From: Pseudomonadota bacterium
GTDB taxonomy: Bacteria > Myxococcota_A > Bradymonadia > UBA4248
NCBI GenBank assembly: GCA_017441205.1
Contig: JAFRYG010000142.1
Span: forward strand, 499 to 64,498
Length of the DNA stretch: 64,000 bases
Direction: 5' to 3'
The notes below the pieces were generated by a model. The model ran no database searches. It saw only the letters and a program-made list of their open reading frames with translations, and was not told the origin of the DNA. Every line of letters begins with the position of its first letter. The first letter of the stretch is position 1. This document shows, in pieces, positions 5,959 through 58,038 of this stretch. Made by a program: the position numbers and the translations under genes.

Positions 5959-6117
5959 ATTGTGAGCCGATGTCCAATTTTTGGGGGTGTTGGCCGCCTA
6001 TTTGACCGCATGCGCGGCTCTGCATACGGCGGCCTTTGGGTCTTGCTATGGGGCTGCTTTGTGCAGCACCCATACGCAAGACCTGCTTTTTATGGGACGA
6101 CAAACCGGGCGTCCGTA

Positions 6118-6873
6118 TTATTCGGCAGATTCCTGAGTTTCTGTCTGCGACTGTGTATTGTTTTCGTCAGATTCAGAAGATTCAGAAGATTCAGAGGATT
6201 CGTCAGTGTTGGCAGTTTCTTCGGAATTTGCTTCTGATTCAGGATTGAACGTGATGTCGATGTAGAACTGATTGGTATCGAGCGTAACTGAATAGGTTTC
6301 TTCTTCGACGGATTCTGCCCGGCTGCTCAAAACAGAACTGATGATCGAACCGGTACTCCATGAACCTGAGCCGGAATCCCCGTTGGTCGACTTGAACCAG
6401 CTCTGAATGTAGTTCATGCGTTTTCGTGCGCTGGGCATGAGTTGAATCGTCACGCGGATGATGTAATTGTCAGGCGGGAGATCCGTCAGCGTGAGAGCCT
6501 GGATGCCAATCTGCGAAAGGGCACTCAGGAACGCATTTTCATCTCTGTACCTCTGCCACATGGATGCGCCGCGCCACAGGATGAGGCAGGGAGATTCGAA
6601 GGGATCGAGGTAGCATCTCTGGGTCGCTTCGAGATGGCTTCGCAGTAAAGTTTTTTCACCGTCGCTGCTGAGCAGCGAGATTTTAATCTGAATGGAATTC
6701 TCCCAGCCATTGGTCAGCACGGGACTGATTTTCTGGATGAATTGCGGAATCATGAGATTACAGAAGATGCGTTTATTGCTTTCTGTGCACTGAACATTGT
6801 CCGCTTCGGCAAATGCGATCTGCGGCAAGAGACAAACCAGCAAAACAAAAATGGAAAGTACGATTCGTTTCAT
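6118..6873 (-). CDS. Exported hypothetical protein (DUF4390-like) with acidic Ser/Glu-rich tail
   Basis: Signal peptide MKRIVLSIFVLLVCLL...AFA; C-terminal ESSESSESSES from 9-bp repeats. Confidence 0.55.
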   Translation of the reverse strand: MKRIVLSIFVLLVCLLPQIAFAEADNVQCTESNKRIFCNLMIPQFIQKISPVLTNGWENSIQIKISLLSSDGEKTLLRSHLEATQRCYLDPFESPCLILWRGASMWQRYRDENAFLSALSQIGIQALTLTDLPPDNYIIRVTIQLMPSARKRMNYIQSWFKSTNGDSGSGSWSTGSIISSVLSSRAESVEEETYSVTLDTNQFYIDITFNPESEANSEETANTDESSESSESSESDENNTQSQTETQESAE

Positions 6874-6875
6874 GG

Positions 6876-8546
6876 CTATCTCACTACCAAATCCAGTAAA
6901 TTGGAGAGCGTAATACTAAAGAGGCCGTAATCTGTTTTGAAGCGGATTCCGGCGTTAAAGGACATGTCAGCAGCAAAGCTGTCGCGGATTTGCTGTGGCT
7001 GAGTTCCCAGGAAGAGGCTTCGTGATTCGAGAGAATCGGCCCATGTGGCGCCGACAGACAGGAAAATCTCGAGCATTCTGGCGACAGGCTGCCAGGCATA
7101 AGTCAGAGCAATATGCGCGATGAAATCTTCATAAGAGAGCCCGGAGGCACCTGTTTTGAACAGATCATATGCGCCGCGATGGCTCGGGTTGAGCATGAAA
7201 AATCTCGAAGGCGCCAGCGTATAAAAATCTCTGTAGAAGAATTTTTCGAAAAATGGCGCATTGCCCCAGGTCGCTCCCCAGAAAGACTGGAGCCGAATCA
7301 CATGATGGACATCGGCGTTAAAGTTGCTCTGGTGTGCGAGGTGCATTCTGAAATAGGAATAGTCGGACGCGGAGGTTCTGGCAGTCCCTTTCAGACCGAG
7401 CATGATAAAATGCCCTTTGTTGGGGAGGATGCGGCCTGCCCGGCTGTCGTACATGACGTTTGCTTCGATGGTGGTCAGATTGCCATGGCCTGCTTTCATG
7501 AAATCGTCGAGTTCTGTGCGAACTGTCGACAAATCATTGCGGCGAAGCAGATTCATGTATTCGACTCTGAACATGAGTCGGACGAGCGGATGCGGCGCAT
7601 AACCCAGGCCGATCGATGCGCCATGGCGTTCGAAAACGAGATCATCCAGATATTCAAAGGGATTGGTTTTGTTTTCGCTCGTTTTGATCTCATTGTTGTA
7701 ATAGGAGGGCCCAAAGACGCCTTCATGGGAATGAAGCGATTGGATTGAGAACATCAGTGAGACGGGTTGGTGAGCGATCGTCGGGATGAGGTAATTCATC
7801 GAAAGCGTATAATCATTCGATGATGTTGCCCCGAATGCCATCCGGAAACGGTGATCGGTTGCGAACGGCGCAAGGTAGGTGACATCCAGACCAAGCCAGA
7901 ACGGCGATTTGTAGCTTGAACCGATGGTGTAGTTATTGAACTGCAGATGCGAACGTTCCGAAACATGCAGGTGTATGACGATGCTTCCGCGTTCATTGCC
8001 GGGACGAAGCGACATGTCAACGGAGTTGAACAGACCGCACATTGCGAGGCGGAATCTGGCATCTTCGAGTTCGTCGAGTGTGATTCGATCCGTGTCGTCG
8101 AGGCCAAGCATCTTAATGATTCTTTCCCTCGAAGTCTGTGTGTTGCCTGTGACCCGAATGGTTTGAATGACATATTCCGGATTCGGCAGTCTGGCTTCTT
8201 CGGAGGAGGGAACGAGCTCCAGCGATGAATCCAATTCATCGGCATACTCGCCATCCTCTTCGTCAAGAATGATGTCACCTTCTTCGTATTCGTCATCGAT
8301 GTAATCGTCATCGGTGATTTCTCTGTCGTCTCCCTCCATGTTGTCATCGTTAATGGAATACACCATGTGAGCTGCAGGGACATCGAGCGGTGGATCGACT
8401 TCATTCTGACCGTCATTGTTGTAGGCGGGAGCTGAGTCAGGGAGTGATGTGACTGTCGGGGGAGTGGCTTCTTCCTGGGCAAAGACACTCGCGGGAAACA
8501 TGCATAACGCTAGAATTCCGCAATAAATATATGTTTTAAGTTTCAT
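6876..8546 (-). CDS. BamA/TamA (Omp85) family outer-membrane protein with one POTRA domain and an acidic N-terminal region
   Basis: Signal peptide from MKLKTYIY (8546); POTRA IRVTGNTQTSRERI...LFNSV; barrel motifs YDSR..LPNKG and APFFEKF. Confidence 0.75.
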   Translation of the reverse strand: MKLKTYIYCGILALCMFPASVFAQEEATPPTVTSLPDSAPAYNNDGQNEVDPPLDVPAAHMVYSINDDNMEGDDREITDDDYIDDEYEEGDIILDEEDGEYADELDSSLELVPSSEEARLPNPEYVIQTIRVTGNTQTSRERIIKMLGLDDTDRITLDELEDARFRLAMCGLFNSVDMSLRPGNERGSIVIHLHVSERSHLQFNNYTIGSSYKSPFWLGLDVTYLAPFATDHRFRMAFGATSSNDYTLSMNYLIPTIAHQPVSLMFSIQSLHSHEGVFGPSYYNNEIKTSENKTNPFEYLDDLVFERHGASIGLGYAPHPLVRLMFRVEYMNLLRRNDLSTVRTELDDFMKAGHGNLTTIEANVMYDSRAGRILPNKGHFIMLGLKGTARTSASDYSYFRMHLAHQSNFNADVHHVIRLQSFWGATWGNAPFFEKFFYRDFYTLAPSRFFMLNPSHRGAYDLFKTGASGLSYEDFIAHIALTYAWQPVARMLEIFLSVGATWADSLESRSLFLGTQPQQIRDSFAADMSFNAGIRFKTDYGLFSITLSNLLDLVVR

Positions 8547-8710
8547 TCGATGCTCGCGTGGATAAGAAAAGTCCTGTTCTGACACCGGTCCTGGCTGTCA
8601 AACCATTGATTATGCCTTGAGTTTCGTTACAGATAAAGAATTATTATTCTCAATGTAAAAAATAGGCTATGTACCCCGAATATGGCTATTACCATTAGGA
8701 TATAGACTCG

Positions 8711-8927
8711 TTCGCGCTTTGCAGCGCGGTTGCTTGTTTTTTTTGTACGCTTACGCGGCAGGGGGTGTTCGATTGTGAACACCCCCTACAACCCCCGCAC
8801 GCTTTTGTGCATTCATGGTTGCGGGGCGAATGTCCATCCCTGGACATGCCGCCCTCGCCTCTCGCCACCATCCATGGCGGCGTATTTATTGTGATGAATG
8901 CCGAATACGGACATTCGGAATCATTGC
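8711..8927. repeat. ~215-bp structured intergenic direct repeat, copy A
   Basis: Near-identical to 11289-11502; hairpins GGGGGTGTTC-GATTGT-GAACACCCCC, CCCCGCA..TGCGGGG and TGTCCA-TCCC-TGGACA. Confidence 0.9.
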
Positions 8928-8978
8928 AACAAAGCAGATAAAGAAACGTCTCTGTACTAATGATTAATTGGATGAATG

Positions 8979-9512
8979 CTACCTGATCAGATCATTGAGC
9001 AAATCGGATCCGGAGTCATAGAATTTAGCCAGGGTCCGATTTTTTGCTGTCAGGAGGCCGTCATCCGTATTTTTGTCGAGCATGGCTTTGAGCAAATCGT
9101 AGCATCCCAGTGCATTGAGAATACCCATGGGTTTGCTGCACAGACCGAGGGATTTGAGAACGTAGAGCTCGAAGAATTCATCGAAGGTTCCGATGCCGCC
9201 TGGCAATATGGCGAAGGCATCGGAGATGTTTTCCATCGTGGCTTTTCGGTCGTGCATGCTTTCGGTGATGATGACCTGGGTGCATCCTTCGAAGGTAAAG
9301 CCCGGACGATCGAATATTTTGGGGACGACGGCGATGATCTTTCCGTTGGCTTCGGCTGCACCCTGAGCAACGGCACACATAATGCCCTTGTTGTAACCGC
9401 CGTAAACGAGATCATGGCCCTGCGAGGCGAGCATATATCCGAAGTCTTTTCCGATTTTGTAGAATTCCGGGTTGAGGGATTCGGATGACGAGCAATAAAC
9501 ACAGATTTTCAT
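8979..9512 (-). CDS. LOG family (TIGR00730-like) nucleotide phosphoribohydrolase
   Basis: MKICVYCSSS start with AGGAG RBS; LVYGG, MHDRK and LPGGIGTFDE motifs. Confidence 0.9.
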   Translation of the reverse strand: MKICVYCSSSESLNPEFYKIGKDFGYMLASQGHDLVYGGYNKGIMCAVAQGAAEANGKIIAVVPKIFDRPGFTFEGCTQVIITESMHDRKATMENISDAFAILPGGIGTFDEFFELYVLKSLGLCSKPMGILNALGCYDLLKAMLDKNTDDGLLTAKNRTLAKFYDSGSDLLNDLIR

Positions 9513-9737
9513 ATTTCTCCTTGGAATCATCTTGACGCGGTGCCGCTGCCTGGTAGTTTTGTCAGGAAGCACTGGTGCTGACATGCTGTGAAATATTCGC
9601 GAAGCGCGTCAATGGCAATAGTCAATTTTAGAGTTGTTGGTTGTTAACTAAAGCCTGCAGAGGAACCGGATGATGAAAATGAGGCGGCAGGATGAAAGCA
9701 CCGGAACCTGCATCAAACCATGCCAAAATGGGATTTG

Positions 9738-11216
9738 TCAGCGCGGAGAAACGGATGGGGATGCGTAGTTGCGAATGATGACTTCTGAACCGGTGCGTTT
9801 GGAGGCATCACAGTTGATCATTCGCCTGACATCGAATGTTTCGATATTGTACCCGCTGTAGAGGTCATATATCTGCGGAACATCGTGATTGCTGAGCATG
9901 ATCATGGCGCCTTTTTGATCGAGTTTTCGGAACAGATCGGCGAGTCTCTGATGATCATGGGATGTGAAGCCGGATTTGTCGTAATCCGTGAAGTTGGCGG
10001 TTTGAGTCAATGGGATGTAGGGGGAGTCGAAATAGACGAAATCACCGGGCTGCACGTTCTCGCATGCAGTTTCGAAATCTTCGTGCAGGAAAGTGACATC
10101 TGCGGTCTGCAGATATTCTCCGATGCGGAGGAGGTTGTCGGTGTTCATCGGGGTTGCCCCGGTGTGGTTGTTGTAGGGAACGTTAAACATCCCCTTTGCA
10201 TTGACGCGGTATAATCCGTTGAAACAGTGCTTGTTGATCCAGATCATGAGTCCGGCAGTTTCGGCATCGAAGGATTGTTCTGCAATTTTAACATTATATT
10301 GTTCCCGGATTTGCAGGTAGTGTTCTTTATTGCATGGCGAAGCGTCGAGATTCTGTATGACGGAGATGACGGCTTTGGGATCGCTTTTGAGCTGTGTATA
10401 GATATTGATGAGCTGCGGATTGATGTCGTTGATGACGGCATTTTTTGGATTTTGAGCGAGGAACAGCGCTCCGCCGCCGATGAAAGGTTCAAAGTAGCGA
10501 TGATAATCTGCGGGCATGCGTTCGATGAGGCGGGGGAGGAGCTGTGATTTTCCGCCGGCCCATTTGACGAAGGGGCGAAGATACTGCCCGTTTGCGGGAT
10601 CTGAATGATTTTTGCCGGTAGTTCGGGAATGCCTGGAACCGGTTGATGGGTTGACCGGGAACTGGCTGAGCTTTTCGTTAAGTTTTTTGTAGATTCTCCG
10701 GACGAACCATGGTTCGGTGGAAGCGTCCAGGGCTTCCTGCAGCAAGAACCAACGTACGCCGCTGTTTTCTGTTTCGCGGATTATCAGGGGATCATTTTCG
10801 TCGGCTTCGAGGAGATAGGTAACATTGAGGTGAAGGTGCGTTGAAACGTATTTGCCATTCTTTTCGTGGCCATCGACGCTGAGGACTTCGAGGGAACAGA
10901 TATTTTCGGATATTGGCCGGACGTTTTGAATGCCGGTTTCTTCCCGGCATTCGCGGATGGCAACTTCGAGGAGATTCTGATTTCCGTCGGCGTGTCCGCC
11001 GGTCCACGACCAGGAGTGATATATATTATGATAAACCATCAGGACTTTGTCGTGCCTGTGATTGACGATCCAGGATGATGCGGTGACGTGTGCGATTGGA
11101 TTGGATCGCAGGAAAGCGTCGGGATGGTGTGCGATAAAATCGAGGATGATTTGTTTGTCGCAGGTTTCCTGTTCATTGAATGGCGTATAGTTTTTTATGT
11201 CCTGTTGAATCGTCAT
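9738..11216 (-). CDS. Fusion of an N-terminal NUDIX hydrolase and a C-terminal Dam/DpnM-family DNA adenine methyltransferase
   Basis: Nudix box GGHADGNQNLLEVAIRECREETGI; MTase motifs PFVKWAGGKSQL, YFEPFIGGGAL, GLYRVN and FVYFDSPY (motif IV variant); one uninterrupted ORF. Confidence 0.88.
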   Translation of the reverse strand: MTIQQDIKNYTPFNEQETCDKQIILDFIAHHPDAFLRSNPIAHVTASSWIVNHRHDKVLMVYHNIYHSWSWTGGHADGNQNLLEVAIRECREETGIQNVRPISENICSLEVLSVDGHEKNGKYVSTHLHLNVTYLLEADENDPLIIRETENSGVRWFLLQEALDASTEPWFVRRIYKKLNEKLSQFPVNPSTGSRHSRTTGKNHSDPANGQYLRPFVKWAGGKSQLLPRLIERMPADYHRYFEPFIGGGALFLAQNPKNAVINDINPQLINIYTQLKSDPKAVISVIQNLDASPCNKEHYLQIREQYNVKIAEQSFDAETAGLMIWINKHCFNGLYRVNAKGMFNVPYNNHTGATPMNTDNLLRIGEYLQTADVTFLHEDFETACENVQPGDFVYFDSPYIPLTQTANFTDYDKSGFTSHDHQRLADLFRKLDQKGAMIMLSNHDVPQIYDLYSGYNIETFDVRRMINCDASKRTGSEVIIRNYASPSVSPR

Positions 11217-11288
11217 TGGAATTCCGGTTCTATATATTAATGTAATTATTCAGCTTAAAAGCTTTACCTCTGAATGCAGCAAGTATTA

Positions 11289-11502
11289 TTCGCGCCTTGC
11301 AGCGCGGTTGCTTGTTTTTTTACGCTTACGCGGCAGGGGGTGTTCGATTGTGAACACCCCCTACAACCCCCGCACGCTTCATTTGCTATCGCAATTGCGG
11401 GTCGAATGTCCATCCCTGGACATGCCTCCCTCGCCTCTCGTCGCCGTCCATGGCGGCGCAGATATGGAGATGAACACTCACATCCGTATTCGGAATCATT
11501 GC
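11289..11502. repeat. ~215-bp structured intergenic direct repeat, copy B
   Basis: Matches 8711-8927 in the same orientation. Confidence 0.9.
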
Positions 11503-11570
11503 GCTCATATCGAGACTCAATAACCTCACTATGATGTTTGGGATGGGGGGCTATGAAATAACAGGAGGCA

Positions 11571-11680
11571 GTGCGCGGCGTATGGCGGCAGCCATAGGCG
11601 CGCACCCGAGGGCGTATGGTGCGTTTGCACCATAGCCCGAAGGCCGGAGCGTATTGAGGGCCTGCGGCCCGAAAAAAGCG
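11571..11680. repeat. Cluster of three bulged-G REP-like hairpins
   Basis: GC-G-TATGGC-GGCA-GCCATA-GG, GGGC-G-TATGGTGC-GTTT-GCACCATA-GCCC and a GC-G-TATTGAG variant. Confidence 0.8.
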
Positions 11681-11705
11681 AGGCGGCAAAAGACCGTTTA
11701 CATCA

Positions 11706-13112
11706 TCAGGCATTGAGCAGAAAAGCGATGTATCCTTTTTTGGCTTCGTAGAGATCGGCTTTGCTGATGATTTCCCAGGGGGCATGCATATTGAGAACGG
11801 CGATACCGCTGTCGATGACATTCATATTATAGTTGGCGAGCATATATGCGATGGTTCCGCCGCCGCCGGCGTCGACTTTGCCGAGCTCAGCCGTCTGAAA
11901 ACATATATTATTATCATCCATTACTCTTCGGATGATTGCGATAAACTCTGCGCTGCAGTCGCTTGAACCGGATTTTCCGCGGGAACCCGTATATTTGTTG
12001 AACACGAGACCGTGTCCGAAGTAGGCGGCATTTTTGCGTTCGGTGACGCTGGGGTAATTGGGATCGAACGCGGCGCTGACATCGCTGGAGAGGGCGCAGG
12101 AGTTCTGGAGGGCGTGGCGCAGTTTTAGCTCGGAGTAATTGCCGCATGCATTCATGATATCGGCGACGATATTTTCGAAGAAGCGGGATTTCATGCCGGT
12201 TGCGCCGATGCTTCCGACCTCTTCCTTGTCGGTGAGCAGGCAGACGCTTGTCATTTGTGGGTTATGAATTTCGAGCATTGCGGCGAACGAAGGGTATGCG
12301 CATGACCTGTCGTCGTGTCCGTAACCCATGATCATGCTTCGATCGAGTCCGTAATCGCGTGCGGGGCCGGCGGGAACGACTTCGATTTCGGCAGAGAGGA
12401 AGTCTTCTTCTTCGATGTGGTATTGTTCCTTCAGAATGGCGAGTATATTTTGTTTGACGGCATCCTTGATTTCTTTGGATTTATCGGATTCATCCTCACG
12501 ACTTACCAACGGCATGTTTCCGATGAGCACATTGAGATCCTCGCCCTCGATGACTTTGGAGGCCTTTTTTTCGAGCTGTTCAGCGGAGAGATGTATGAGG
12601 AGGTCGCTGATACCGAAGACGGGATCGTTGGGATTTTCGCCGATATTGATGGAGACATTTGTGCCGTCTTTTTGGGATACGATGCCATGAAGTGCGAGCG
12701 GCAGCGTGACCCATTGGTATTTTTTGATTCCGCCGTAGTAATGGGTGTCGAGCAGAGCCATTTCGGTATCTTCATAGAGCGGATTCTGTTTTAGATCGAT
12801 GCGAGGGGAATCGATGTGTGCGCCGAGGATGTTCATGCCATTTTCGATGGGCTCGGATCCGATGATGAATAGGGCGAGGTTTTTGCCCATATTGTCGGCG
12901 AAGACGCGATCACCCGGTTTGAGTTTTATGCCTCTGGCGATGATTTCATGGATGTTCTGGAATCCGGCGGAGATGGCGATTTTTTTTAATTCGGCGACAC
13001 ATTCGCGTTCGGTTTTGCATTTGGAGAGAAAGGCTTTGTATTCTTCGGCGAAAGTGAATACGGCTTTTTTTTCATCGTCACTGTACTTTTTCCATGCGTT
13101 TGGTCGTTCCAT
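11706..13112 (-). CDS. M18 family aminopeptidase
   Basis: GAHIDSPR, HYYGGIKKYQW, GYGHDDR, DKEEVGS, SSDV and MHAPWE motifs. Confidence 0.93.
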   Translation of the reverse strand: MERPNAWKKYSDDEKKAVFTFAEEYKAFLSKCKTERECVAELKKIAISAGFQNIHEIIARGIKLKPGDRVFADNMGKNLALFIIGSEPIENGMNILGAHIDSPRIDLKQNPLYEDTEMALLDTHYYGGIKKYQWVTLPLALHGIVSQKDGTNVSINIGENPNDPVFGISDLLIHLSAEQLEKKASKVIEGEDLNVLIGNMPLVSREDESDKSKEIKDAVKQNILAILKEQYHIEEEDFLSAEIEVVPAGPARDYGLDRSMIMGYGHDDRSCAYPSFAAMLEIHNPQMTSVCLLTDKEEVGSIGATGMKSRFFENIVADIMNACGNYSELKLRHALQNSCALSSDVSAAFDPNYPSVTERKNAAYFGHGLVFNKYTGSRGKSGSSDCSAEFIAIIRRVMDDNNICFQTAELGKVDAGGGGTIAYMLANYNMNVIDSGIAVLNMHAPWEIISKADLYEAKKGYIAFLLNA

Positions 13113-13187
13113 AGTTCCTTCCTCGATGCTGAAATCATGAAATGCGGCACGCAGCCGCGATGTGAGTGGGGGATTTTATATCATAAA

Positions 13188-13322
13188 AATGCGTAATTCG
13201 TAATTCGTAATGCGTAATTCGTAATGCATAATGGGTAGAGACGTTCGGACCGCACGTCTGTACAGGTGATTAATGGGTTAATGCATAATAAAGAGCAATC
13301 ACGCCCCATCGGGGCGTCACAT
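13188..13322. repeat. Heptamer tandem (AAT[G/T]CGT x6) followed by a GTAG-type REP composite
   Basis: GTAGAGACG...CGTCTGTAC, AT-rich linker and ACGCCCC-ATC-GGGGCGT; the REP part is homologous to 29778-29865. Confidence 0.75.
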
Positions 13323-13480
13323 CAGTCGAATGGCGTAAAGAGGAGCGTGAATTTGGTAGCATTTGTATGTGGAATGTATCATGAGGCAAATAAGGTGTTA
13401 TGTATTTAAAATAGTTGCTTTTTTATAGTGTCAGCGTAGACTGGAGATGGGTTATTGTCTTATTCCTTATGGATGGATGT

Positions 13481-14332
13481 ATGAGAATATTAAGAATTCA
13501 CCTGGCTGCCGTCATTTTGGGGATTGCCTTATCGCTGTTTTCGGCGACTGCTTTTGCACAGGATGATCCGTGTTATTCACTGGATGCGAATGAAGACTGG
13601 TGGCGGCTATTTTCTGAGTTCAGTTCTGCATTTACGGCGAAGGATTACAAGCTGGCTCTTGCCAAGACACAGGAGCTTCAGAATATCTGTGCGCGGTCAG
13701 CGGTTCTGAATTTGTCGATAGCGACGACGTATCGTGAGCTGGGGGAAGATACCAATGCATTGAAGTATTATCGGATTGCAGCAGAGAATTCGAAAGAGTT
13801 CAACGTACCGGATGAGATGCTTCAAAAGATCTGGTATGGCCGCTATGAGCTTGAGAAGAAGGATATTCTGTGCAATCGTTCCGAGTTGGATACAGTCAAG
13901 GGGGAGAACGAAGCCAACAAGCAGCGCATTCAGGAATTGAACGCAGAGCTGGATGCGAGCAAGCAGGCGACAGAATACAGTCAGCAACAGCGTGAGCAGG
14001 AGCGCGCTCGTTTCAAGACGATCCTGTGGACGGGAGTTGGTGTCGGTGCAGCTGGTCTCGTTTTGGGAATTACCGGAGGTGCGCTGCTGGGGAGTATAGA
14101 TCCTGTTAATAAGGTCAAATGTGATGATTCACTCTGCAAGAAAACAAAATATGTCGAATTGCACGGAGCGTATCGGCCTGCCTGGACGCTGGTTGGACTC
14201 GGCATTGGCATGACTGCAGCCGGAGCGCTGATGGCAGGGATTGGCGGGTATTTTTATTCGCATGAGCCGGACTCGGTTGCGCTGTCATGGGAGATTGGAC
14301 CGGGCAGTCTGGAAATGGGACTGACATTTTAA
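13481..14332 (+). CDS. Exported TPR-like protein with C-terminal hydrophobic hairpin; paralog of 50107-50979
   Basis: Signal peptide; shares NEDW, IC..S..LN, EF.V..EM...IWY.RYE and WTG.G.G motifs with 50107-50979. Confidence 0.7.
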   Translation: MRILRIHLAAVILGIALSLFSATAFAQDDPCYSLDANEDWWRLFSEFSSAFTAKDYKLALAKTQELQNICARSAVLNLSIATTYRELGEDTNALKYYRIAAENSKEFNVPDEMLQKIWYGRYELEKKDILCNRSELDTVKGENEANKQRIQELNAELDASKQATEYSQQQREQERARFKTILWTGVGVGAAGLVLGITGGALLGSIDPVNKVKCDDSLCKKTKYVELHGAYRPAWTLVGLGIGMTAAGALMAGIGGYFYSHEPDSVALSWEIGPGSLEMGLTF

Positions 14333-14352
14333 ATCAGCGTGGTAAAAAAGGG

Positions 14353-14377
14353 AGCGTCGGAAAACGGCGCTTTTTTT
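14353..14377 (+). terminator. Intrinsic terminator
   Basis: AGCGTCG-GAAAA-CGGCGCT followed by a T tract, just after the stop. Confidence 0.7.
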
Positions 14378-14398
14378 GTATTTGTCTGAGGAGTTGTA

Positions 14399-15139
14399 TT
14401 GATGCACGATGATTTGCAGCTGCCAGTTTCTGATCATTCCGAAGGAAGGGCGGATGTTCCGAAGACTGAGAATGCACGTTATGAGGTAAATGTTCAGCAT
14501 TATGCGCAGTACGACAAGACGGAGACTTCGGGGTATTCGGCAGAAACGCGAAAGAGTCTGACGTATGCAGCGCGTACTCCGTTTGCGAGATTTATTCTGG
14601 ATCTCGGTTTGATATTGTCGCGTCCGTCATTGTTCTGGCGTGGTCAGGCGGAGCATCCTGCGACGCTCGTTCAGGTTCATTGTCCGCATTTGCTGGTGCT
14701 CATCGTATTGCGTACAGCGGCAATCATATTGAGCGGTCTGTTCAAGAGCGATCAGGAGATTTCTCAGGTACTGGTTCAGGCGGGAACGCAGGCGCTTTTG
14801 ATTATTCTGCTCGTGTGGGGGCTTGCGTTGCTGATAGTTCCGCTGACGGGACGTGGATTTCGTTATGACAAGGCGGTTCGCTTTGTGGGGTATGGGATAA
14901 CGCCGATATTGTTTGTAGGAATTGTGAGCATCATTCCGGTGCCGTATCTTGGAACGATTTGCGATTTGCTTGCGATGCCGTGGGCCTTTGTTGTGCTTGG
15001 GGCAGGAATGCTTCCCTATCTGAAGCTAAAGCCGGAGCATGCGCCGGTACTGACGGGGCTGATCTGCGGTTTATTATTTTGTCTGTGGGGTGTACTGCCG
15101 ATACTGATTCCGTATCTGATCGATTTCATTTTCTGGTGA
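14399..15139 (+). CDS. Yip1-domain-like multi-pass membrane protein
   Basis: LILSRPSLFW N-terminal motif and about 5 hydrophobic segments. Confidence 0.6.
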   Translation: MMHDDLQLPVSDHSEGRADVPKTENARYEVNVQHYAQYDKTETSGYSAETRKSLTYAARTPFARFILDLGLILSRPSLFWRGQAEHPATLVQVHCPHLLVLIVLRTAAIILSGLFKSDQEISQVLVQAGTQALLIILLVWGLALLIVPLTGRGFRYDKAVRFVGYGITPILFVGIVSIIPVPYLGTICDLLAMPWAFVVLGAGMLPYLKLKPEHAPVLTGLICGLLFCLWGVLPILIPYLIDFIFW

Positions 15140-15267
15140 TTTGGTCATTATTTTGGGGATCTGAGAAAAAGTTTGTTTTATAACATTATAAAATACCAAT
15201 TCATGGTATCCTGTTATAAATACGGATTGCTGCAGGATGCAGCCTCTAGCGACATGGATGTTGATAT

Positions 15268-17682
15268 ATGAAGCCCATAAAATGGATCCCGGTGCTGGGA
15301 ATTTTGTTATTATTTGGCTGCGCAGCGCCAGTAGTTACGGACAATCCCGTTCAGCGCGAGATTGTTCGTGTTTCAGTGAATGATGGGAGCCCGGAGCAGG
15401 CACCGGTTGAGGTCGTCACATATCATGATACGGAGCGGCCGGATGGTGTTTTGGGGGATTCCGGTCAGTGCAGGCGTCTGATTACGACGGAAGCATTGTT
15501 TTCGAATGCGGATGCGATGCAGGCGTGGGAATTGTACCGCAGCGGCCGGTATCCGGAAGCATCGTCTCAGTTTGAAAAGCTCGCGGGGGATGCTTCGCAG
15601 GCTGCGTTTGAACGCCAGAAGCTCTATTTTATGGCGGCTTTATCCGAACAAAAACAAGGGGAAGAACATGCTCCGGCAGCGACACGTCTGATGAAGCAGG
15701 CATTTGGTCTGAGTGCACCGCTGCAGCGTTCATCAGCGATATTTGGAACGAAGCTCGGGTATCAGGCGAAGTCCTGGTCGGATGTCGTGGAGTTTACGGA
15801 GTCGCTGCTTACTGAAGCGGATTATCGGACATATCGCGGGATTGCGCTGACGAATCTTGGCAAATACGAAGCGGCGGCGCTCGAATTTGATCAAATCGAG
15901 AATTATCCCAAGGCGATTCGCCTGGAGGCGCTCGAAGCGCGGGCGCGGGCACAGTCCGAGACATCGCAGCTCAAGGCTGCGTTGGAAACGTATCGCAGGA
16001 TATACGAGATAGATCCTAACTCTGCGCAAGGGCAAATGGCTTCGGAAGCGATCATGGCGCAAAAGGACAAATGGCCGTCGGGATTCACGTTTCCGCGCGC
16101 GACGCAGAAGACCGATACCTCGAAATCGGCGCGGGATATTGCGCTCGGACACTTCAATGCGCATCGTTCGGAGCAGGCGATTTCGGCGTACTCGAAGCTT
16201 TTGAAGGATGACCGCAAGCGCAGCGATATTCCGAGAATCTGCGAAGATTTGTACAATATCGCGCGGAGTCACGTTAAGCTGCGTGCACATTCCAAGTCGC
16301 TCCCATTTTTCCGGGAGGGGCTTGAGACGTGTGAGAAGACGGATTTGCATGTAAAGATATTGTATTCTGCTGCCAAAGCGGCCTGGAATGCGGGTGAGAA
16401 CACGCAGGCGATTGCATGGTATCAGGAGATCGTGGACAAGTATCCGGATCATTCGTATGCGGATGATGCGTATCATTATCAGGCGCAGATACTATCGGGT
16501 CAGAACAAGCAGGACGAAGCGCGAGAGAAGCTTCGCGAACAGATATCGAAGTATCCGGATGGCGATATGGCTATGGATGCGTACTGGATGCTTTTGTCGG
16601 ATCTTTATGAGCGCGGGCTTTATCAGGAAGCGGTTGAGTTTGTGGATTCGAACCTGGAGCATGCGGGGGAATCGGATCTTTATTCGCAGGGGCGTCTGAA
16701 GTATTTTCAGGGCAGGGCCTATGAGAAGCTTTCGAACCGTCAGGCGGCGATTCAGAACTATCTGAAGACGCTCGATGAGTATCCGCTGTCGTATTATGCG
16801 ATGCTTTCGCTGGGGCGCCTTGAAGTGCTGGATGAAGTGCAGGCGAAGACCTGGCTTGAGACTTACCGGACGGGAACGTTTGAGCCGGATCAGGCGATGG
16901 ATTATTGTTTTCAGGTCGTAGAGAATGAGAATTCATTTTTGGCGGCGCGGACGCTTGCACAGATTGGTTTGTATCGCGATGCACTGGATGAACTGGAACC
17001 GTTATTGGCGAGCAGTGATCAGCGCGTGACGTACGAAGCGCGCCTTGCGAAGGCGATATTGCTGCAGAAGAATGGCCAGTATTCGGACAGTGCGCGCCTT
17101 GCGGCGGGGCTTTTGAATCCGCAGCAGGATCTCATTTATCACAGTTATGCGCCGTGGCTTCTGGCGTATCCGAAGCCGTGGTCAAAGATCGTGAGCAGTG
17201 CTGCTGATCCGGAGAGTACGCTTTATTATACGACATATGCGATCATGCGCGAGGAGAGCTATTACAATCCGAAGGCAGAGTCGTGGGCGAATGCGCGCGG
17301 CCTGATGCAGCTGATGCTTCCGACGGCGCAGTCGAGTGCGGCTGAAATCGGGCTTTCGAAACCGAGTGCCTCTGATCTGTTCAAGCCGGAGATCGCGATA
17401 CCGATTGGATCGTCCTATATTGCGAAGCTCAACAAAATACTGGCGCCGCATCCGATGCTCGTATTGCCGGGATACAATGCTGGCCAGGGGAATGTGGGCA
17501 AATGGATGACGCGGTTCGCGGAAACGGATGTCGATTTGTATGTTGAAAAGATTCCGTTCAAGGAAGCTCGCCATTATGCGAAGCGCGTTGGTACGACACT
17601 GTGGCGGTATCGCTGGCTTTATGATAAGGCGTTGCCGAAGAATTTTGATCCCGGTCAGAAAATCGGGGAATTGAAGCCATAA
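15268..17682 (+). CDS. slt: Soluble lytic transglycosylase (Slt-like) lipoprotein with TPR repeats
   Basis: Lipobox LLFGC; TPR repeats; IMREES, ARGLMQLM, GYNAG and EARHYAKRV motifs. Confidence 0.88.
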   Translation: MKPIKWIPVLGILLLFGCAAPVVTDNPVQREIVRVSVNDGSPEQAPVEVVTYHDTERPDGVLGDSGQCRRLITTEALFSNADAMQAWELYRSGRYPEASSQFEKLAGDASQAAFERQKLYFMAALSEQKQGEEHAPAATRLMKQAFGLSAPLQRSSAIFGTKLGYQAKSWSDVVEFTESLLTEADYRTYRGIALTNLGKYEAAALEFDQIENYPKAIRLEALEARARAQSETSQLKAALETYRRIYEIDPNSAQGQMASEAIMAQKDKWPSGFTFPRATQKTDTSKSARDIALGHFNAHRSEQAISAYSKLLKDDRKRSDIPRICEDLYNIARSHVKLRAHSKSLPFFREGLETCEKTDLHVKILYSAAKAAWNAGENTQAIAWYQEIVDKYPDHSYADDAYHYQAQILSGQNKQDEAREKLREQISKYPDGDMAMDAYWMLLSDLYERGLYQEAVEFVDSNLEHAGESDLYSQGRLKYFQGRAYEKLSNRQAAIQNYLKTLDEYPLSYYAMLSLGRLEVLDEVQAKTWLETYRTGTFEPDQAMDYCFQVVENENSFLAARTLAQIGLYRDALDELEPLLASSDQRVTYEARLAKAILLQKNGQYSDSARLAAGLLNPQQDLIYHSYAPWLLAYPKPWSKIVSSAADPESTLYYTTYAIMREESYYNPKAESWANARGLMQLMLPTAQSSAAEIGLSKPSASDLFKPEIAIPIGSSYIAKLNKILAPHPMLVLPGYNAGQGNVGKWMTRFAETDVDLYVEKIPFKEARHYAKRVGTTLWRYRWLYDKALPKNFDPGQKIGELKP

Positions 17683-17784
17683 TTAAAAAAAAGAAGCCGC
17701 CGCGTATGAAATAGCGGCGGCAGCGAGCTGTAGGTCCGCGCTTAGAGCGCGGGACAAAGCGAGCGACACTAAAAAGAAGAAAAG

Positions 17785-18972
17785 ATGTCATACAAGGAAT
17801 TAAAGATTTCGCAGAAGCTCGTAAAAACGCCGTACGAAAAGCTGATCGCGGCGTGTCTGGTGTCGCGGGATGCGGCGGATCTGGAGGCGATCGATTCTCT
17901 GTACAAGCAGTGTCAGGAGCGTCGCCTTTATTTGTTTGCTGAGGAACACGAGTGTGCGTCGATTGTGGCGGCACGTCTTCAGGCGCTGAGCAAGTCGAGT
18001 CCGCAGTGGGATTATGCCCTGGATGACTGGAAATACCGTTTGAACCAGCGTTTTGAGGCGCTGGATGCGCTTGCGGATGCGCTGAAGCAGAAGGGGATTC
18101 CCCTGATTGCCTTGAAAAATGCGGGGATTGCGCGCGGGATATATCCCTATCCGGAAGAGTGTCCGATGGGGGATTTTGATGTTCTGGTGAAGAAATCGGA
18201 TTTTGAGGCGGCGCATGAAGTTGTGATGTCGCAGGGATTTTCGCTTGGATTCAGGGCCGAGAACACGATTGAAAAAGAGGGTGTCAAGGAAGGGCTGCTG
18301 AGCGGCGGGACGGAATACAAGAAAGAGCTTGCGGATGACACGCTGTGGCTCGAACTGCAGTGGCGTCCGATAGCGGGACGCTGGATTGCGCCGGAAGTCG
18401 AGCCGAAGGCGGATGATTTGTTTGAAACAGCGATGCCGATCAAGGGCAGCAATATATTGCTTCAGGACCCGGTTTCGAATCTGCTTCAGGTGTCGCTTCA
18501 TACGGCGAAGCATTCGTATGTGCGTGCGCCGGGTCTGCGTCTGCATACGGATGTCGATCGCATCGTGCGGGCGTATCCGAAGCTGGACTGGGATGCGTTT
18601 GTGTGTCGCGTCAAACGGATGAACGTTGGGGTGTCGGTGTTCTTTTCGCTGGCCATTCCGGCGGATCTGTTCGGGACGCCGATTCCCGAAGAGGTTATCG
18701 ATGCGCTTGAACCGCCCAGACTGCAGCGCGATTTTATCTTTAAATGCATTGAGAAGGCGGGATTGTTCCATCCGCTGGCGCATAAATTTTCGAGGGTTCG
18801 GTATCTGGCATTTTGTGCGATGCTGTTCGATACGCCGAAGGCATGTTTTCATTCGGCGTTTCCGTCGGCAAACTACATGAAAGCGCATTACGGGCTGGCG
18901 TCGAATGCGCAGCTTCCAGCTTGTTATGCGAAGCGGTTTGTGGGGCTGCTGTTCAAGCGTGTAAAGACGTGA
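17785..18972 (+). CDS. Uncharacterised nucleotidyltransferase (NTP_transf_5-like)
   Basis: PLIALKN...YP...PMGDFDVLV pattern, ELQW and LHTAKH. Confidence 0.75.
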   Translation: MSYKELKISQKLVKTPYEKLIAACLVSRDAADLEAIDSLYKQCQERRLYLFAEEHECASIVAARLQALSKSSPQWDYALDDWKYRLNQRFEALDALADALKQKGIPLIALKNAGIARGIYPYPEECPMGDFDVLVKKSDFEAAHEVVMSQGFSLGFRAENTIEKEGVKEGLLSGGTEYKKELADDTLWLELQWRPIAGRWIAPEVEPKADDLFETAMPIKGSNILLQDPVSNLLQVSLHTAKHSYVRAPGLRLHTDVDRIVRAYPKLDWDAFVCRVKRMNVGVSVFFSLAIPADLFGTPIPEEVIDALEPPRLQRDFIFKCIEKAGLFHPLAHKFSRVRYLAFCAMLFDTPKACFHSAFPSANYMKAHYGLASNAQLPACYAKRFVGLLFKRVKT

Positions 18973-18988
18973 TTTTGAGGATGATTCG

Positions 18989-24593: not shown

Positions 24594-24594
24594 G

Positions 24595-25083: not shown

Positions 25084-25427
25084 TTTTTTGTGGGGAACTC
25101 TCTTGCCGGGCATAGCCCGGCTACGTTCGTTCAAAAAGCCTATGTGCCTTTGGGCACATACGGCTTTTTTGCTTTTTAGGGCCTGAATTTAGAGCCTGGA
25201 GCCTGGAGCCTGGAGCTTGGAGCTTATCGACACTCTGGCAGTACAGAGCCTGCTTTTTTTATTGAATACGTATTGTTGAAGGGAGTTATGGCTTTTGTTT
25301 TCGGTGACAGTGTGAAATTTTTTTGATTTGTTCCTTTGACATTATTAAGGGCTTGCATATAACTGCTTGGCCTCAAATCATGCCTGCAAACCATTTGGTT
25401 TTGCGGAGCAATCATGTGGGAGAAATT

Positions 25428-28835: not shown

Positions 28836-28846
28836 TCCAAATGCAG

Positions 28847-28908
28847 TTTGGCGCGTATTGGCCATCAGCCAATAGCGCCAAATTCCGGGCGTATGCAATA
28901 GCCCGGAA
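28847..28908. repeat. Two tandem bulged-G REP-like hairpins between convergent secA and dapF
   Basis: TTTGGCGC-G-TATTGGC-CATCA-GCCAATA-GCGCCAAA and TTCCGGGC-G-TAT-GCA-ATA-GCCCGGAA. Confidence 0.85.
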
Positions 28909-28920
28909 AACCCGAAAAAA

Positions 28921-29727: not shown

Positions 29728-29777
29728 GTTTTTGAGTTGGAAGTTGGAAGTTGGGGAATTAGCAATCAGGGGATGTT

Positions 29778-29865: not shown

Positions 29866-30001
29866 TCTCATAAATGATTTGCCGGAGCATTACATCCCCA
29901 TTTTGAACGATTAAGTTTTTGCATATTTTGTTATAAGCCTCTCAAACTGACGGCGCGATTTTGAGCTGTCTCCCAAAGCGCTACGGAAACTACCGAGAGG
30001 A

Positions 30002-30808: not shown

Positions 30809-30824
30809 GTTTTGTTTTTGCGTG

Positions 30825-30958
30825 GGCCGGGCTATTTCGCCGCTGGCTCAATACGCTCCGGCCATGCCGCTATCTGCTGCGCAGATACGCGGCATTTGTT
30901 TTGTGTAAAACAATCCCCAAAAATAAAAGCCCGTATGCGCATGGCGCATAGGGCTTTT
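30825..30958. repeat. Cluster of three bulged-G REP-like hairpins in mixed orientation
   Basis: GC-TATTTCG..CTCAATA-C-GC, ATGCCGC-TATCTGC-TGC-GCAGATA-C-GCGGCAT and AAAAGCCC-G-TATGCGC-ATG-GCGCATA-GGGCTTTT. Confidence 0.85.
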
Positions 30959-37323: not shown

Positions 37324-37619
37324 GGAAATGCGTGGGAGAGCAGCTAGTAAAAAGGGCGCGCAGCGTATGGCCGCAGGCCATAGCGAAGCGGAAATCCGCC
37401 GTATTTCCGTCAGGAAATAGGCGGTTCCCAGGAACAAAAGAAAAGCCGTTGCGACTATAGCGGAAATGAGATGCATTCAGCCAGTGTTTTAAGCGAAGAG
37501 AATCGGGGCCGAAAGTCATTTTTTTTTCATCATGATTTGCTATTCGGCATTGATAATGTTAGATAAAAACGCAGTGAAGAAGTGTGGATAGAGTAACATT
37601 GGCATAAAGGAAAAACGAC

Positions 37620-51115: not shown

Positions 51116-51210
51116 GCGCGGTGTATTGAGCTGCAGAGACGTGTCGCGACACGTTTGCAGCGAAATAGCCGCGCCCGCAGGGCGTATGTCGCCCATGGGC
51201 GACATAGCCC
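51116..51210. repeat. Two bulged-G hairpins, one nesting a GTAG-like REP
   Basis: GCGCGGT-G-TATTGAG-[CTGCAGAGACGTGTCGCGACACGTTTGCAG]-CGAAATA-GCCGCGC; GGGC-G-TATGTCGCC-CATG-GGCGACATA-GCCC. Confidence 0.85.
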
Positions 51211-56900: not shown

Positions 56901-57164
56901 GGATCCAAACTGATTTGGCAGTTCTATATGCCCGGCAATGCGACATCGGCGGAATTTCCAAAGGTATATTCGTGGCCGGAAGATCATTCCGAAACATTGT
57001 ATATTCAGCTGACCGCCTACAAATCCATTCGTGAAGGCTTTGATTTCAATAAGTTTTCAACCGGAGATACCCGTCATAATTATATTCATTCGTCGGCGAC
57101 GTCGACATTGATGATTAATGATCCGGCGAATGAACCTCCTCCTCCGGGGGGCGGAGCTGGTTAA
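53970..57164 (+). CDS. IPT/TIG-domain lipoprotein
   Basis: GGAGG RBS; lipobox SAGC; repeated [L/V]..[V/I].P..G...GG..V.I.G..F domains. Confidence 0.82.
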   Translation: MCQMKNKPFLILLLGVMLSAGCIDPSDYVKYVEEDPPEPERPVVVDPPGEIPDQGDEPKRPGGSAGIIPGNPEDVDEPVPGGAGNGGAVVIPEKLALESVVPSSGDIRGGYEVRLHGTCLDKSGTMQFGALDAPELTYVNTKVVRAKVPEGKKGCVDIVWNQDGETLTLKNGFCYVEKIAFSEVVPDVVVSNTATELVIHGSGFDDKTRVYLSDGEKTLPIVDLHVVSGTELRGLMPVLKEGMASVYLLNGAGEVSAENAIKVLPEISLSSLEPSRIEVGKSTEISIAGKGFWEDVQVRIGSEVVKPDSVNDSKLVMKAPSLSAGHYDVLVYDGWQQSRLDKAIHYYNNDGSPQVLELTPAKGSIKGGTSVTIHGVNLPISGDAMFDGQKASVKSRTSNAWMLTTPAHEAGFVDVAVGEYELKKGFEYTAVASTLKLDSIKPEHAVVADGNTYVVLKGSGFTKDMSVSFGPWESESVSIVSSGEAKVLVPKGSGTVPVTVSVGDKTAQKTFTYDDAVSILGITPAEAVLTGSTHIDVYGTGFAEGMKIQIAGEKLKTTISHPGHLSFYAPAHDVGTDDVILLCKDGKVCGKTQLTWFDSSGINTSAFGSAIDGQLHVTVLTVDTAVPIEGATVYIGSDLETALKGTTDKDGRVSFFDKRLKDAQIVIACAPEHSCNTLQPINATNVTLFLEDWHADDPPSAEDNPPPPPPEGDTINPVEVSVPYKPEQPYFSGTVGSFGKFELVSNPAFVKAGLVMQSSLSPYMMSYDKDDVYLIREVGGKYKLKARSGDVALALVCGLYDTVSGAFYPKYIGVKRHLFVSDGAKIVNHLECPIPLNQNLSIKLLDPPLKSGPNGVRASAYIFVGDEGYIGGFMGGESKTDFVVITGMPPLRDSLSESSFAITAGAYTDGGYPASVFYEYNVVPDGSTLEVGPAAPIPVFYTKSTDDILATGVVSWSVEHPENVDFYAMTIRSYGPKGSKLIWQFYMPGNATSAEFPKVYSWPEDHSETLYIQLTAYKSIREGFDFNKFSTGDTRHNYIHSSATSTLMINDPANEPPPPGGGAG

Positions 57165-57270
57165 TTTTGGGGCTTCGTTTGCGGTCTTTGACCGCTACAC
57201 TTCGCCATAACGCTGCTATTGCTTTGCAATACGCAGCGTTGTCTTTTGTTTGGGTTGAGAACCACAGGTT

Positions 57271-57972
57271 ATGAAAACAATAGCGCACCTGAACCATATA
57301 CGGAAAACCTACGGAACCGGAGAGGCTGTCCTCAGTGTGCTCAATGATTTTTCGATGGAGATTGCCGAAGGCGATTTTGTCGCCATTCAGGGGCGCAGCG
57401 GGAGCGGGAAAACGACGCTGCTCAATATTATTGGTTTGCTGGACAGCGATTTTTCCGGGGATTATGAGTTATTTTCATATCGTGAAAATGGCATGGTGGT
57501 TCCACGGAATCTGAGAGATTCTGCGCTGAGTCTGCTGCGAAACGAAATGATTGGGTTCGTTTTTCAGCACTTTAATTTGCTCGAACACATGACCTGTTTT
57601 GAGAATGTATGTCTGCCGGCTTCCTTTTGCGGTCATGATGTGGATCTGAAGCAAATAGAAGCAAAAGCGTACGATTTAATGAAACGGCTCGATGTCGCCG
57701 ACAAACGGGATGCATTGCCGTCGCAGCTTTCGGGGGGACAGAAACAGCGCGTCGCCATTGCACGTGCGCTATTGCTGAGTCCCAAGCTGATATTGTGCGA
57801 TGAACCGACCGGAGCGCTGGATGTCGAAACCAGCCGAAGTATTATGGCCTGCTTCCGCGAACTGTGTCGCCGCGAGAATATGGCTTTTGTCATTGTGACA
57901 CATGATCAGGGCGTCGCGGATGCCTGTGATCGCATCATCAAAATGGAGGCCGGACGTATTGCGCAGCAATAG
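57271..57972 (+). CDS. ABC transporter ATP-binding protein (LolD/MacB-type); no permease in window
   Basis: [42 protein letters not shown] and IVTHD. Confidence 0.95.
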
Positions 57973-58038
57973 GACGGCCCAAAAGGCCGTATGCCGTGAG
58001 GCATAGGCCGATAAACCAACAGTGGGAATCGTATAAAA

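Follow-up and report, generated by a model that had tools for sequence, protein, structure and literature searches.

Repetitive extragenic palindromic (REP) repeats rank among the most frequent non-coding elements in bacterial genomes, and their origin and role are still debated. Folded strands are recognized in other systems too: integron attC sites are identified by shape rather than sequence, as a folded single strand in which extrahelical bases mark the active strand, with short core boxes and a highly variable centre, and IS608 TnpA reads hairpins with an extrahelical base. Here we describe a family of bulged-G hairpins, i.e. intergenic hairpins in which an outer and an inner stem meet at a single unpaired G beside a TAT/ATA pairing. 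They recur in a 64,000-nucleotide (nt) stretch of a gut Myxococcota genome (contig JAFRYG010000142.1, C61:499-64498 in our numbering; hereafter the window) and across that genome (4.36 Mb, 221 contigs, 49% G+C, 94% complete). An earlier note on the window had listed 16 such sites and proposed a REP-like family defined by structure, possibly the substrate of a host HUH enzyme or of an RNA-binding protein.

Catalogued REPs carry terminal GTAG/CGTC tags, family-specific stems of 6–13 bp and loops that are sometimes self-complementary; their catalogued degenerate GTAG tags have positions 2–3 changed or read GTGG, and GTAT is unmentioned (Di Nocera et al. 2013, PMC3733652). Catalogued REP dimers are mostly head-to-head or tail-to-tail, and REP families do not strictly correlate with genes for REP-associated tyrosine transposases (RAYTs) and can outlast their RAYT (PMC3733652). 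The tag of the bulged-G hairpins is GTAT, and it is internal and paired. They match none of the classes catalogued there (PMC3733652), a match that the earlier note had said would overturn its proposal.

The family is high-copy and intergenic, with a tiny fixed core and stems that are paired but not conserved, and to this extent the REP-like, structure-defined family proposed before is upheld. Our preferred explanation, to which we give an even chance, is that it represents a new structure-defined variant of REPs and bacterial interspersed mosaic elements (BIMEs) whose junction is most likely read by a protein on folded G-strand DNA, with about one third of the arrays co-opted as terminators.

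A fixed junction between variable stems

The pattern CGTAT-N(3-30)-ATAG occurs 25 times in the window compared with 5.3 +/- 2.7 times in shuffled sequence, and 25 is reached in 0 of 100 shuffles. Genome-wide, a perfect outer stem of at least 5 bp followed by TAT...ATA is found with a bulged G 645 times, whereas a bulged A, C or T is found 57, 20 and 54 times, respectively, and no bulge 99 times. When every bulge base is combined with every triplet, G/TAT scores 504 and the next non-homopolymer combinations score ~25 or fewer. A looser detector returns 969 copies, ~90 of them weak, chance-like and deep in genes, and we put the family at ~850 copies overall. Most of the 969 (785) lie outside gene calls; the 184 "coding" matches are either weak and attributable to chance or fall in gene starts that were called too far upstream, and just 3 strong copies are found well within good genes. 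The repeat is short (25–60 nt), palindromic, high-copy and extragenic, as REPs are.

The triplet and the G are fixed, as had been claimed, but the fixed part is larger than G-TAT/ATA: a C precedes the unpaired G in 87% of copies and a G precedes that C in 70%, giving an 11-base core, GC-G-TAT/ATA-GC. Among copies chosen on this core alone, inner-stem positions are paired in 90–100% of cases compared with 27–85% when partners are shuffled, and outer-stem positions in 41–89% compared with 21–46%. A formal covariation count on an unselected sample finds 88% of cells paired and 38 double changes, where shuffles give 68% and 14; 0 of 500 shuffles reach either value, and slid controls give 30–44%. 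As such, the stems vary freely and yet stay complementary, as first reported. A sub-type reading TATT-GAG/CGA-AATA, reported at 11642, 30825 and 51116, is also real, but in the window it is complete only at the latter two sites. Its Y-GA-R sequence, present on both arms in 28 copies genome-wide, is the context in which sheared tandem G.A pairs form in DNA.

These pairing data bear on whether the hairpins are passive sites for gyrase, HU/IHF or Pol I, as proposed for Escherichia coli BIMEs, or decaying relics without function. In copy number, intergenic position and clustering they do resemble BIMEs (PMC2817692). However, relics would lose their pairing, yet the stems are 88–100% paired, and binding to structure alone leaves an invariant, asymmetric 11-base core in three genera unexplained. 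We regard both versions as highly improbable.

Strand polarity, arrays and modules

We call the strand that bears the unpaired G the G strand (G form); the opposite strand reads as the C form. The two strands differ in their loops. Triloops make up 418 of 709 short loops, and GNA triloops occur 222 times on the G strand compared with 15 times on the other, C-GCA-G alone accounting for 140. The position of these loops suggests that the G strand is the one that folds and, as d(C-GNA-G) is a classic extra-stable DNA mini-hairpin, that it folds as DNA. The flanks are asymmetric as well. On the G strand, A makes up 45–51% of positions -1 to -8 against a background of 27%, while T is almost absent from the 3' flank, which often reads CCC..AAAA. 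In 187 arrays the G form has an A-run on its 5' side, and in 3 it has a T-run on its 3' side; similarly, of the sites made of a hairpin and a T-run, 267 overlap the C form and 2 the G form.

Neighbouring units are organized head-to-tail (166 pairs share one orientation, 26 diverge and 4 converge), with gaps of 0–5 nt; the regular spacing and alternating orientation of BIMEs are not seen. The commonest arrangement is a head-to-tail doublet in which the first hairpin has an 8-bp outer stem and the second has a shorter or imperfect one or is itself a GTAG-tagged hairpin; the limit on outer stem length is sharp at 8–9 bp. The GTAG-tagged partners form a family of their own, GCGAGCY-GTAG-(hairpin)-CAAR-GCGAGC, with ~50 copies in the genome, 22 of them directly 3' of a bulged-G hairpin. 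A palindrome, ACGTGTCG[CT]GACACGT, is the inner hairpin of GTAG-tagged units and is also nested in bulged-G units (e.g. 51138-51157, inside the 51116 hairpin). A further palindrome family, framed by GTAC...CTAA, has ~56 copies.

Sequence diversity is extreme. As many as 926 of the 969 sequences are unique, and the commonest full sequence occurs 11 times; the stem conservation of a REP family is lacking, as is the dominant sequence of a REPIN population, in which inverted REP pairs cluster around a master. Among 679 good copies there are 299 different outer 7-mers and 490 different inner parts. For example, the outer stem GCGCGGC is found in 39 copies with 27 inner parts and ACGCCGC in 19 copies with 18, while the inner part GCCGCAGGC is found in 12 copies with 9 outer stems, in unrelated flanks. 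Only 30 combinations of outer and inner part recur, and the two stems assort nearly independently.

Within a composite repeat of 52 copies, ...CCGCAnnGGGGGTA(hairpin)GCAGGGGGC..GCCCCC, the flanks are conserved and the outer stem nearly so, but the inner part ranges from GAA (3 nt) to ~80 nt, with nested reverse-oriented units and series that resemble the growth of a palindrome from its centre. It follows that the inner part changes much faster than the sequence around it or that modules are swapped at the junction. The composite is ~100 nt long, comprises three hairpins with the bulged-G hairpin in the middle, and has no Rfam match. Another motif without an Rfam match, GAACTGAGGCGAATTGTTTGGATT, is present in 81 copies, partly in tandem units of ~126 nt. 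This motif and the composite repeats are found at C48:11450-11930, C37 (-) 24570-25170, C131 and many contig ends; they concentrate at the ends of contigs and are a probable cause of breaks in the assembly.

Independent modules are what would be expected if the junction were the crossover of a hairpin-specific recombinase or nuclease acting on a folded strand, much as the integron integrase acts on attC, with inner hairpins swapped or nested and units added head-to-tail. The unrelated flanks of shared modules, the hypervariable and sometimes nested inner parts of homologous composites, the close spacing of units in one orientation, the limit on outer stem length and the reliance on structure with an extrahelical base to mark the strand all agree with this idea. 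Independent assortment could nevertheless be mimicked by a limited, GC-rich set of stems combined with templated correction of quasi-palindromes from one arm to the other; moreover, the units are not in cassette arrays, no candidate enzyme was found, and strains show no polymorphism (see below). We therefore think recombination of this kind very unlikely.

Within the window, all 16 sites of the earlier list were read in the sequence and folded as single-stranded DNA. The described anatomy, two tiers with an unpaired G, is present at 15 of them, while 11642 retains the left half only. At 13 sites the minimum-energy DNA fold is exactly stem, one unpaired G, TAT...ATA and stem; z ranges from -3.8 to -8.7 for 11 of these and is weaker, about -2.4 to -2.5, at 30825 and 5992. 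In the minimal copies at 17696 and 28883 the energy model leaves TAT-GAA-ATA and TAT-GCA-ATA, respectively, open. The list lacked three copies, at 37354, 37396 and 57949, bringing the window to ~18, as well as two GTAG-tagged partners (Table 1). The degenerate copy at 11642 has its first 17 bases in common with the 30825 copy. The unit at 57949 overlaps the end of an ABC ATPase gene, encoding its last ~7 codons and, through its ATAG, its TAG stop (57970-57972).

Table 1. Bulged-G hairpins and GTAG-tagged partner hairpins in the window (strand is that of the G form or the tag)
Position	Strand	Feature	DNA-fold z	Details
5992..6034	-	Bulged-G hairpin, second of head-to-tail doublet	-2.4	GGCCGCC-G-TAT-(22 nt imperfect inner)-ATA-GGCGGCC on G strand, then CCCCCAAAAAT; -13.2 kcal/mol
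6039..6083	-	Bulged-G hairpin, first of doublet	-8.5	8-bp outer stem GGTCTTGC; A-run 5' on G strand; begins 35 nt past stop of 6118-6873(-) gene
11571..11605	+	Bulged-G hairpin, first of three	-4.6	Outer stem of 9 positions, one mismatch
11610..11638	+	Bulged-G hairpin	-5.6	Short 4-bp outer stem GGGC/GCCC
11642..11680	+	Degenerate copy	0.04	Left arm GGCCGGAGC-G-TAT-TGAG intact, right arm lost, then CCCGAAAAAA; no fold
17696..17721	+	Minimal bulged-G hairpin		GCCGCCGC-G-TAT-GAA-ATA-GCGGCGGC; preceded by AAAAAAAA; begins 14 nt past stop of SLT/TPR gene
17723..17764	+	GTAG-tagged partner hairpin, minor GTAG family		GCGAGC-T-GTAG-( GTCCGCGC TTAG AGCGCGGGAC )-AAA-GCGAGC
25102..25132	-	GTAG-tagged partner hairpin		Minus strand: GAACGAAC-GTAG-(CCGGGC TAT GCCCGG)-CAAG
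25133..25169	-	Bulged-G hairpin	-8.7	Plus strand: C form then T-run, downstream of HPPK gene; looks like an intrinsic terminator
28847..28882	+	Bulged-G hairpin, first of doublet	-6.8	Begins 12 nt past secA stop
28883..28908	+	Minimal bulged-G hairpin		TAT-GCA-ATA; abuts 28847 unit, zero gap
30825..30863	-	Bulged-G hairpin, tandem-GA sub-type	-2.5	TAT-TGAG...CGAA-ATA
30864..30895	-	Bulged-G hairpin, terminator-like	-5.6	C form on plus strand then TTTGTTTTG, downstream of ion-channel gene
30925..30958	+	Bulged-G hairpin	-4.8	Preceded by A-run; C form + T-run for convergent gene 31016-34039(-)
37354..37391	+	Imperfect bulged-G hairpin		Core CGTAT-GGCCGCAGGCC-ATAG intact, outer stem degraded
37396..37424	+	Bulged-G hairpin		CCGCC-G-TAT-TTCCGTCAGGAA-ATA-GGCGG
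51116..51174	+	Large bulged-G hairpin, tandem-GA sub-type	-5.9	ACGTGTCGCGACACGT palindrome nested in inner stem
51180..51210	+	Bulged-G hairpin	-5.0	Short 4-bp outer stem
57209..57240	-	Bulged-G hairpin	-4.6	C form on plus strand then GTCTTTTGTTT; 45 nt past stop of TIG-domain gene
57949..57978	+	Bulged-G hairpin		GGCCGGAC-G-TAT-TGCGCAGCA-ATA-GGACGGCC; tandem G.A in outer stem
57985..58009	+	Bulged-G hairpin, second of doublet	-3.9	Short 4-bp outer stem

The genes of the window are ordinary (Ser/Thr kinase, Nudix-Dam fusion, M18 peptidase, SLT/TPR, HPPK, secA, dapF, ion channel, dprA, ribF and ABC ATPase), and the sequencing runs that contain its DNA are ruminant gut metagenomes. The Nudix domain at 9738-11216 (-) is fused to a D12-class (Dam-type) adenine methyltransferase. 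The secA product (25323-28835, +; 1170 amino acids) ends in ~300 residues, after the wing/scaffold domain, that match no Pfam family. Four stretches, 8712-8812, 11381-11474, 13188-13290 and 29796-29867, have contig depth raised 5- to 40-fold in gut metagenomes with many loose ends, and represent other interspersed repeats common to many contigs.

Gene context, turnover and candidate partners

Doublets begin ~0–20 nt from a stop codon, in either orientation. Units in the G form are often found at 0–20 nt from the stop, whereas the detected C-form unit peaks at 40–80 nt, which fits a doublet that begins at the stop. Altogether, 70% of copies are closer to the stop that precedes them than to the start that follows; copies between divergent genes number 119. 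Where the flanking genes are in tandem, the messenger RNA (mRNA) would contain the C form in 214 cases and the G form in 173, or 159 and 128 when only well-scored flanking genes are used. Relative to replication, as judged by GC skew, single units split 414:342 and arrays 242:218, no bias worth the name. The earlier claim that both orientations occur regardless of transcription thus stands for the near-random orientation relative to genes, but it overlooked the polarity hidden in the A-rich flanks. Near-random orientation relative to both genes and replication speaks against a function in the sense of the mRNA.

The A-run nevertheless separates two groups. Arrays with an A-run make up 44% of the arrays between convergent genes, 31% of those in tandem and 17% of those between divergent genes, and in tandem contexts they split 64:35, i.e. 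64 of 99 face in the sense direction. Judged on sequence and position, ~1/3 of arrays look and are placed like intrinsic terminators, always as the C form. For the remaining ~2/3, orientation is uncoupled from the direction of transcription (108:109 in tandem contexts for arrays without an A-run).

One could extend this to the whole family and see it as an RNA-level element, i.e. terminators or barriers to 3'-end decay whose junction is bound by a clade-specific RNA-binding protein or RNase. The positions directly past stops, the terminator-like third with its enrichment between convergent genes, and a slight excess of G.T over A.C mismatches on the G strand (100 vs 70) are consistent with such a role. 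By contrast, the near-random orientation relative to the upstream gene, the even split of arrays without an A-run and the copies between divergent genes are difficult to reconcile with it. So are the GNA loops, which sit on the strand without the T-run, such that RNA in the terminator form would carry UNC loops. Rfam returned only tRNA-Met for the window at gathering thresholds and nothing for three repeat-rich loci at E<=1, and 4 RNA runs yielded scattered single-read contigs only. Overall, an RNA-level role for the family as a whole is possible but unlikely.

The hairpins are confined to a narrow lineage. All 11 genomes of the genus exceed the control 7- to 20-fold in the core pattern, as do a second genus (g3, 3 genomes) and a third (g5, 1 genome), i.e. 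15 of the 17 genomes of this family of gut Myxococcota. The pattern is at control level in the two genomes of genera g2 and g4, and the family of hairpins is absent from 24 sampled genomes of other families of the order and class. A 22-mer containing the core was searched against 185,579 species; among the matches listed, almost all are metagenome-assembled genomes (MAGs) of gut Myxococcota, labelled "Myxococcales", "Myxococcota" or "Proteobacteria bacterium" and obtained from cattle, buffalo, deer and other guts.

Between species of the genus, which share ~70% DNA identity in genes, individual copies are not stable. In seven relatives the dapF spacer contains between 0 and 3 copies, with unrelated stems and mixed orientations, and 4 of 4 further orthologous spacers have a doublet in a relative and are empty in this genome. 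Metagenome loci searched for intermediate relatives gave one near-identical and three distant sequences. At the strain level, we compared contigs from five gut metagenome runs over 5000-19000 and 28600-31200, and one 98%-identical contig over 23903-34326. Strains that are 98–99% identical keep every hairpin in the stretches covered, with point differences only, and neither insertion nor excision nor a joint at a hairpin was found in these data. At the DNA level, copies thus appear to come and go on the time scale of species while remaining stable among strains.

We then considered which enzyme could act on the hairpins. Protein searches and the Pfam profile for Y1_Tnp across the 17 family genomes detected no Y1_Tnp gene in 5 of the 15 genomes with hairpins (G003, 99% complete; G005; G007; G009; G012, 97%), although these hold 478–916 core-pattern matches; conversely, weak Y1 matches are present in both genomes without hairpins. 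Over 21 Y1 loci (62 kb), hairpin density is 0.21 per kb, the genome background. The single IS200-type Y1 gene of this genome (C123:20900-21832, at a contig end; 170 amino acids, HUH motif HVH) has GAACCCCnnnGGGGTTC and GTAG-CCCCCGG hairpins at its flanks, just as its 68%-identical relative in G002 has GTAG hairpins; GTAG-CCCCCGG and GAACCCC...GGGGTTC repeats lie beside both genes. The RAYT gene flanked by bulged-G hairpins that the earlier note suggested looking for was thus not found, nor was a REPtron in the usual sense, i.e. a single-copy Y1 gene co-distributed with the repeats at its flanks. With no co-distribution in 17 genomes and no enrichment at Y1 loci, a RAYT link is not supported.

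The Y1 gene on C123 sits amid GAACCCCAGAGGGGTTC and GTAG-CCCCCGG...CCGGGGG hairpins (~40–50 copies genome-wide), and from its layout the locus resembles an ordinary REPtron that belongs to another repeat family. Proteins of the MmeI restriction-modification type with an inserted partial Y1_Tnp domain, an odd combination that was not found in this genome, are encoded in relatives at L067:2417-4072 (G006:C16) and L068:1199-5056 (G008:C245), with Pfam E-values of 2e-12 and 3e-11.

Other HUH classes gave a similar outcome. No TrwC-type relaxase (PF08751) scored above cut-off in 19 genomes, while the E. coli positive control matched, so that a MOBF-type origin of transfer (oriT) would lack its cognate TrwC/TraI-type relaxase; the only MOBQ/P-type relaxase (PF03432) is in G013, a hairpin-free genome; and Y2_Tnp (PF04986) gave no match in a search whose control gave none either. 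The partner does not appear, from these gene contents, to be an IS200-type Y1 (RAYT-like) protein or a relaxase of TrwC or MOBQ/P type. The suggestion that the hairpins are HUH substrates is thus not supported by the available tests and has only analogy in its favour.

These results also weigh on the possibility that the hairpins are a GTAT-tagged offshoot of GTAG REPs, bound and spread by the Y1 transposase, in which case genomes without Y1 would have lost the gene or failed to assemble it. GTAT does lie 5' of the inner hairpin on the strand with GNA loops, as GTAG does in REPs; a true GTAG family is often the direct neighbour of the hairpins; three bulged-G hairpins lie ~250 bp from the only Y1_Tnp gene; REP families are known to persist without a RAYT; and extrahelical bases are recognized by IS608 TnpA. 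Set against this are the uncoupled distributions of Y1 and hairpins, the background density and foreign repeats at Y1 loci, the head-to-tail units, which are unlike catalogued REP dimers, and the lack of a master sequence. Such an origin is, in our opinion, quite unlikely.

We therefore return to the explanation given at the outset. Under it, a trans-acting protein would dock at the 11-base junction and read the self-folded G strand, which most probably folds as single-stranded or extruded DNA. Selection or arm-to-arm copying would preserve pairing in both stems even as their sequences drift or are exchanged, and the ~1/3 of arrays with an A-run on the G strand may also act as intrinsic terminators for the gene that reads the C form and T-run.

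Several observations count against this explanation. The C form is slightly over-represented in mRNA (55%, and 65% for copies with a T-run), indicating some coupling to transcription, and the loop chemistry does not strictly exclude folding as RNA. Diversity on this scale is unlike known replicating populations of REPs or REPINs. With no insertion or excision polymorphism, mobility is deduced only from differences between species (~70% identity, 4 spacers), and, as no partner protein was found, the docking site is likewise an inference. Lastly, the genes were called with a home-made open reading frame caller, covering 85% of the genome, and the genomes compared are incomplete MAGs.

A bolder proposal is that the junction is the site of an undescribed enzyme, outside the HUH classes tested, that cuts and rejoins folded single-stranded DNA at TAT|ATA. 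If so, inner hairpins would be exchanged, nested or newly grown and units added head-to-tail, and the family would be a structure-defined class of mobile or diversifying elements with the logic of attC but scattered over the chromosome. We consider this improbable.

Compared with the earlier note, the analysis adds the head-to-tail layout, the polarity, the loop asymmetry, the independence of modules, the GTAG partner family and the negative HUH tests. The family is an extreme case, as ~850 copies share a shape and 11 bases and persist in three genera. If a specific binder exists, it would provide a new example of a protein that recognizes a folded single strand through an extrahelical base, and the clean presence and absence (15 genomes against 2 of sister genera) makes a search for it tractable. 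In practice, the family accounts for many intergenic hairpins and assembly breaks in MAGs of gut Myxococcota, and predictions of terminators or small RNAs in these genomes should mask or model the hairpins.

Comparison with described systems

Rho-independent terminators share with ~1/3 of arrays a GC-rich hairpin followed by a T-run, in the C form. The other 2/3 lack the T-run, the hairpins are often antisense to the upstream gene, and termination needs no invariant asymmetric junction. We rejected a DNA-uptake sequence by reasoning, since the core halves are 3 to >60 nt apart and become adjacent only when folded.

Conjugative nic sites offered a further lead. The oriT nic region of plasmid R388 (IncW), the substrate of TrwC, reads GGTGCGTATTGTCT^ATAGCCC, with the nic at the caret. 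It contains GCGTAT-TGTCT-ATAGC (GCGTAT-N5-ATAGC), formally the 11-base core, and the 43-nt sequence is 100% identical in 12 IncW plasmids (e.g. NC_028464.1:16149-16191). However, its hairpin lies 5' of the motif and not inside it. As no TrwC gene was found in the 19 genomes searched, the TrwC lead was rejected, and the likeness is probably a chance match of 11 bases.

The ends of IS200/IS605 elements such as IS608 (see PMC6006769) are sub-terminal single-strand hairpins with an extrahelical base that an HUH enzyme reads, and their 5' guide pairs with the 3' cleavage site in a manner that resembles TAT...ATA around the inner hairpin. Such hairpins delimit a transposase gene, however, and each genome has only a few of them; the bulged-G hairpins, moreover, show no orientation bias to the lagging-strand template.

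REPINs and their RAYTs (Bertels and Rainey 2011, PMC3116915) are similar in forming a hairpin of two inverted arms and in persisting vertically in a lineage. They differ in having a master sequence and a single-copy RAYT, whereas the bulged-G hairpins have no master, and one in three genomes lacks a RAYT.

The likeness to REPs and BIMEs of Enterobacteria, Pseudomonas and Stenotrophomonas goes further. Both are short, GC-rich, imperfect palindromes present in hundreds of copies, strictly extragenic, mostly just past genes, in either orientation and in composite arrays, and in both an asymmetry of the stem marks the strand. GTAG REPs also have a four-base tag 5' of the hairpin (GTAT here) and, in some families, variable self-complementary loops, and true GTAG hairpins are the doublet partners of the hairpins described here. 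Unlike in REPs, pairing of the internal tag as TAT/ATA leaves the G unpaired, stems are unconserved, dimers are head-to-tail, and no RAYT tracks or flanks the hairpins.

Finally, integron attC sites occur in cassette arrays of one orientation beside an integrase gene, whereas the bulged-G hairpins are scattered past housekeeping genes in both orientations, a layout that argues against membership of that class. In putting shape over sequence and in marking the strand with an extrahelical base, attC is nevertheless the described system closest to them in logic.

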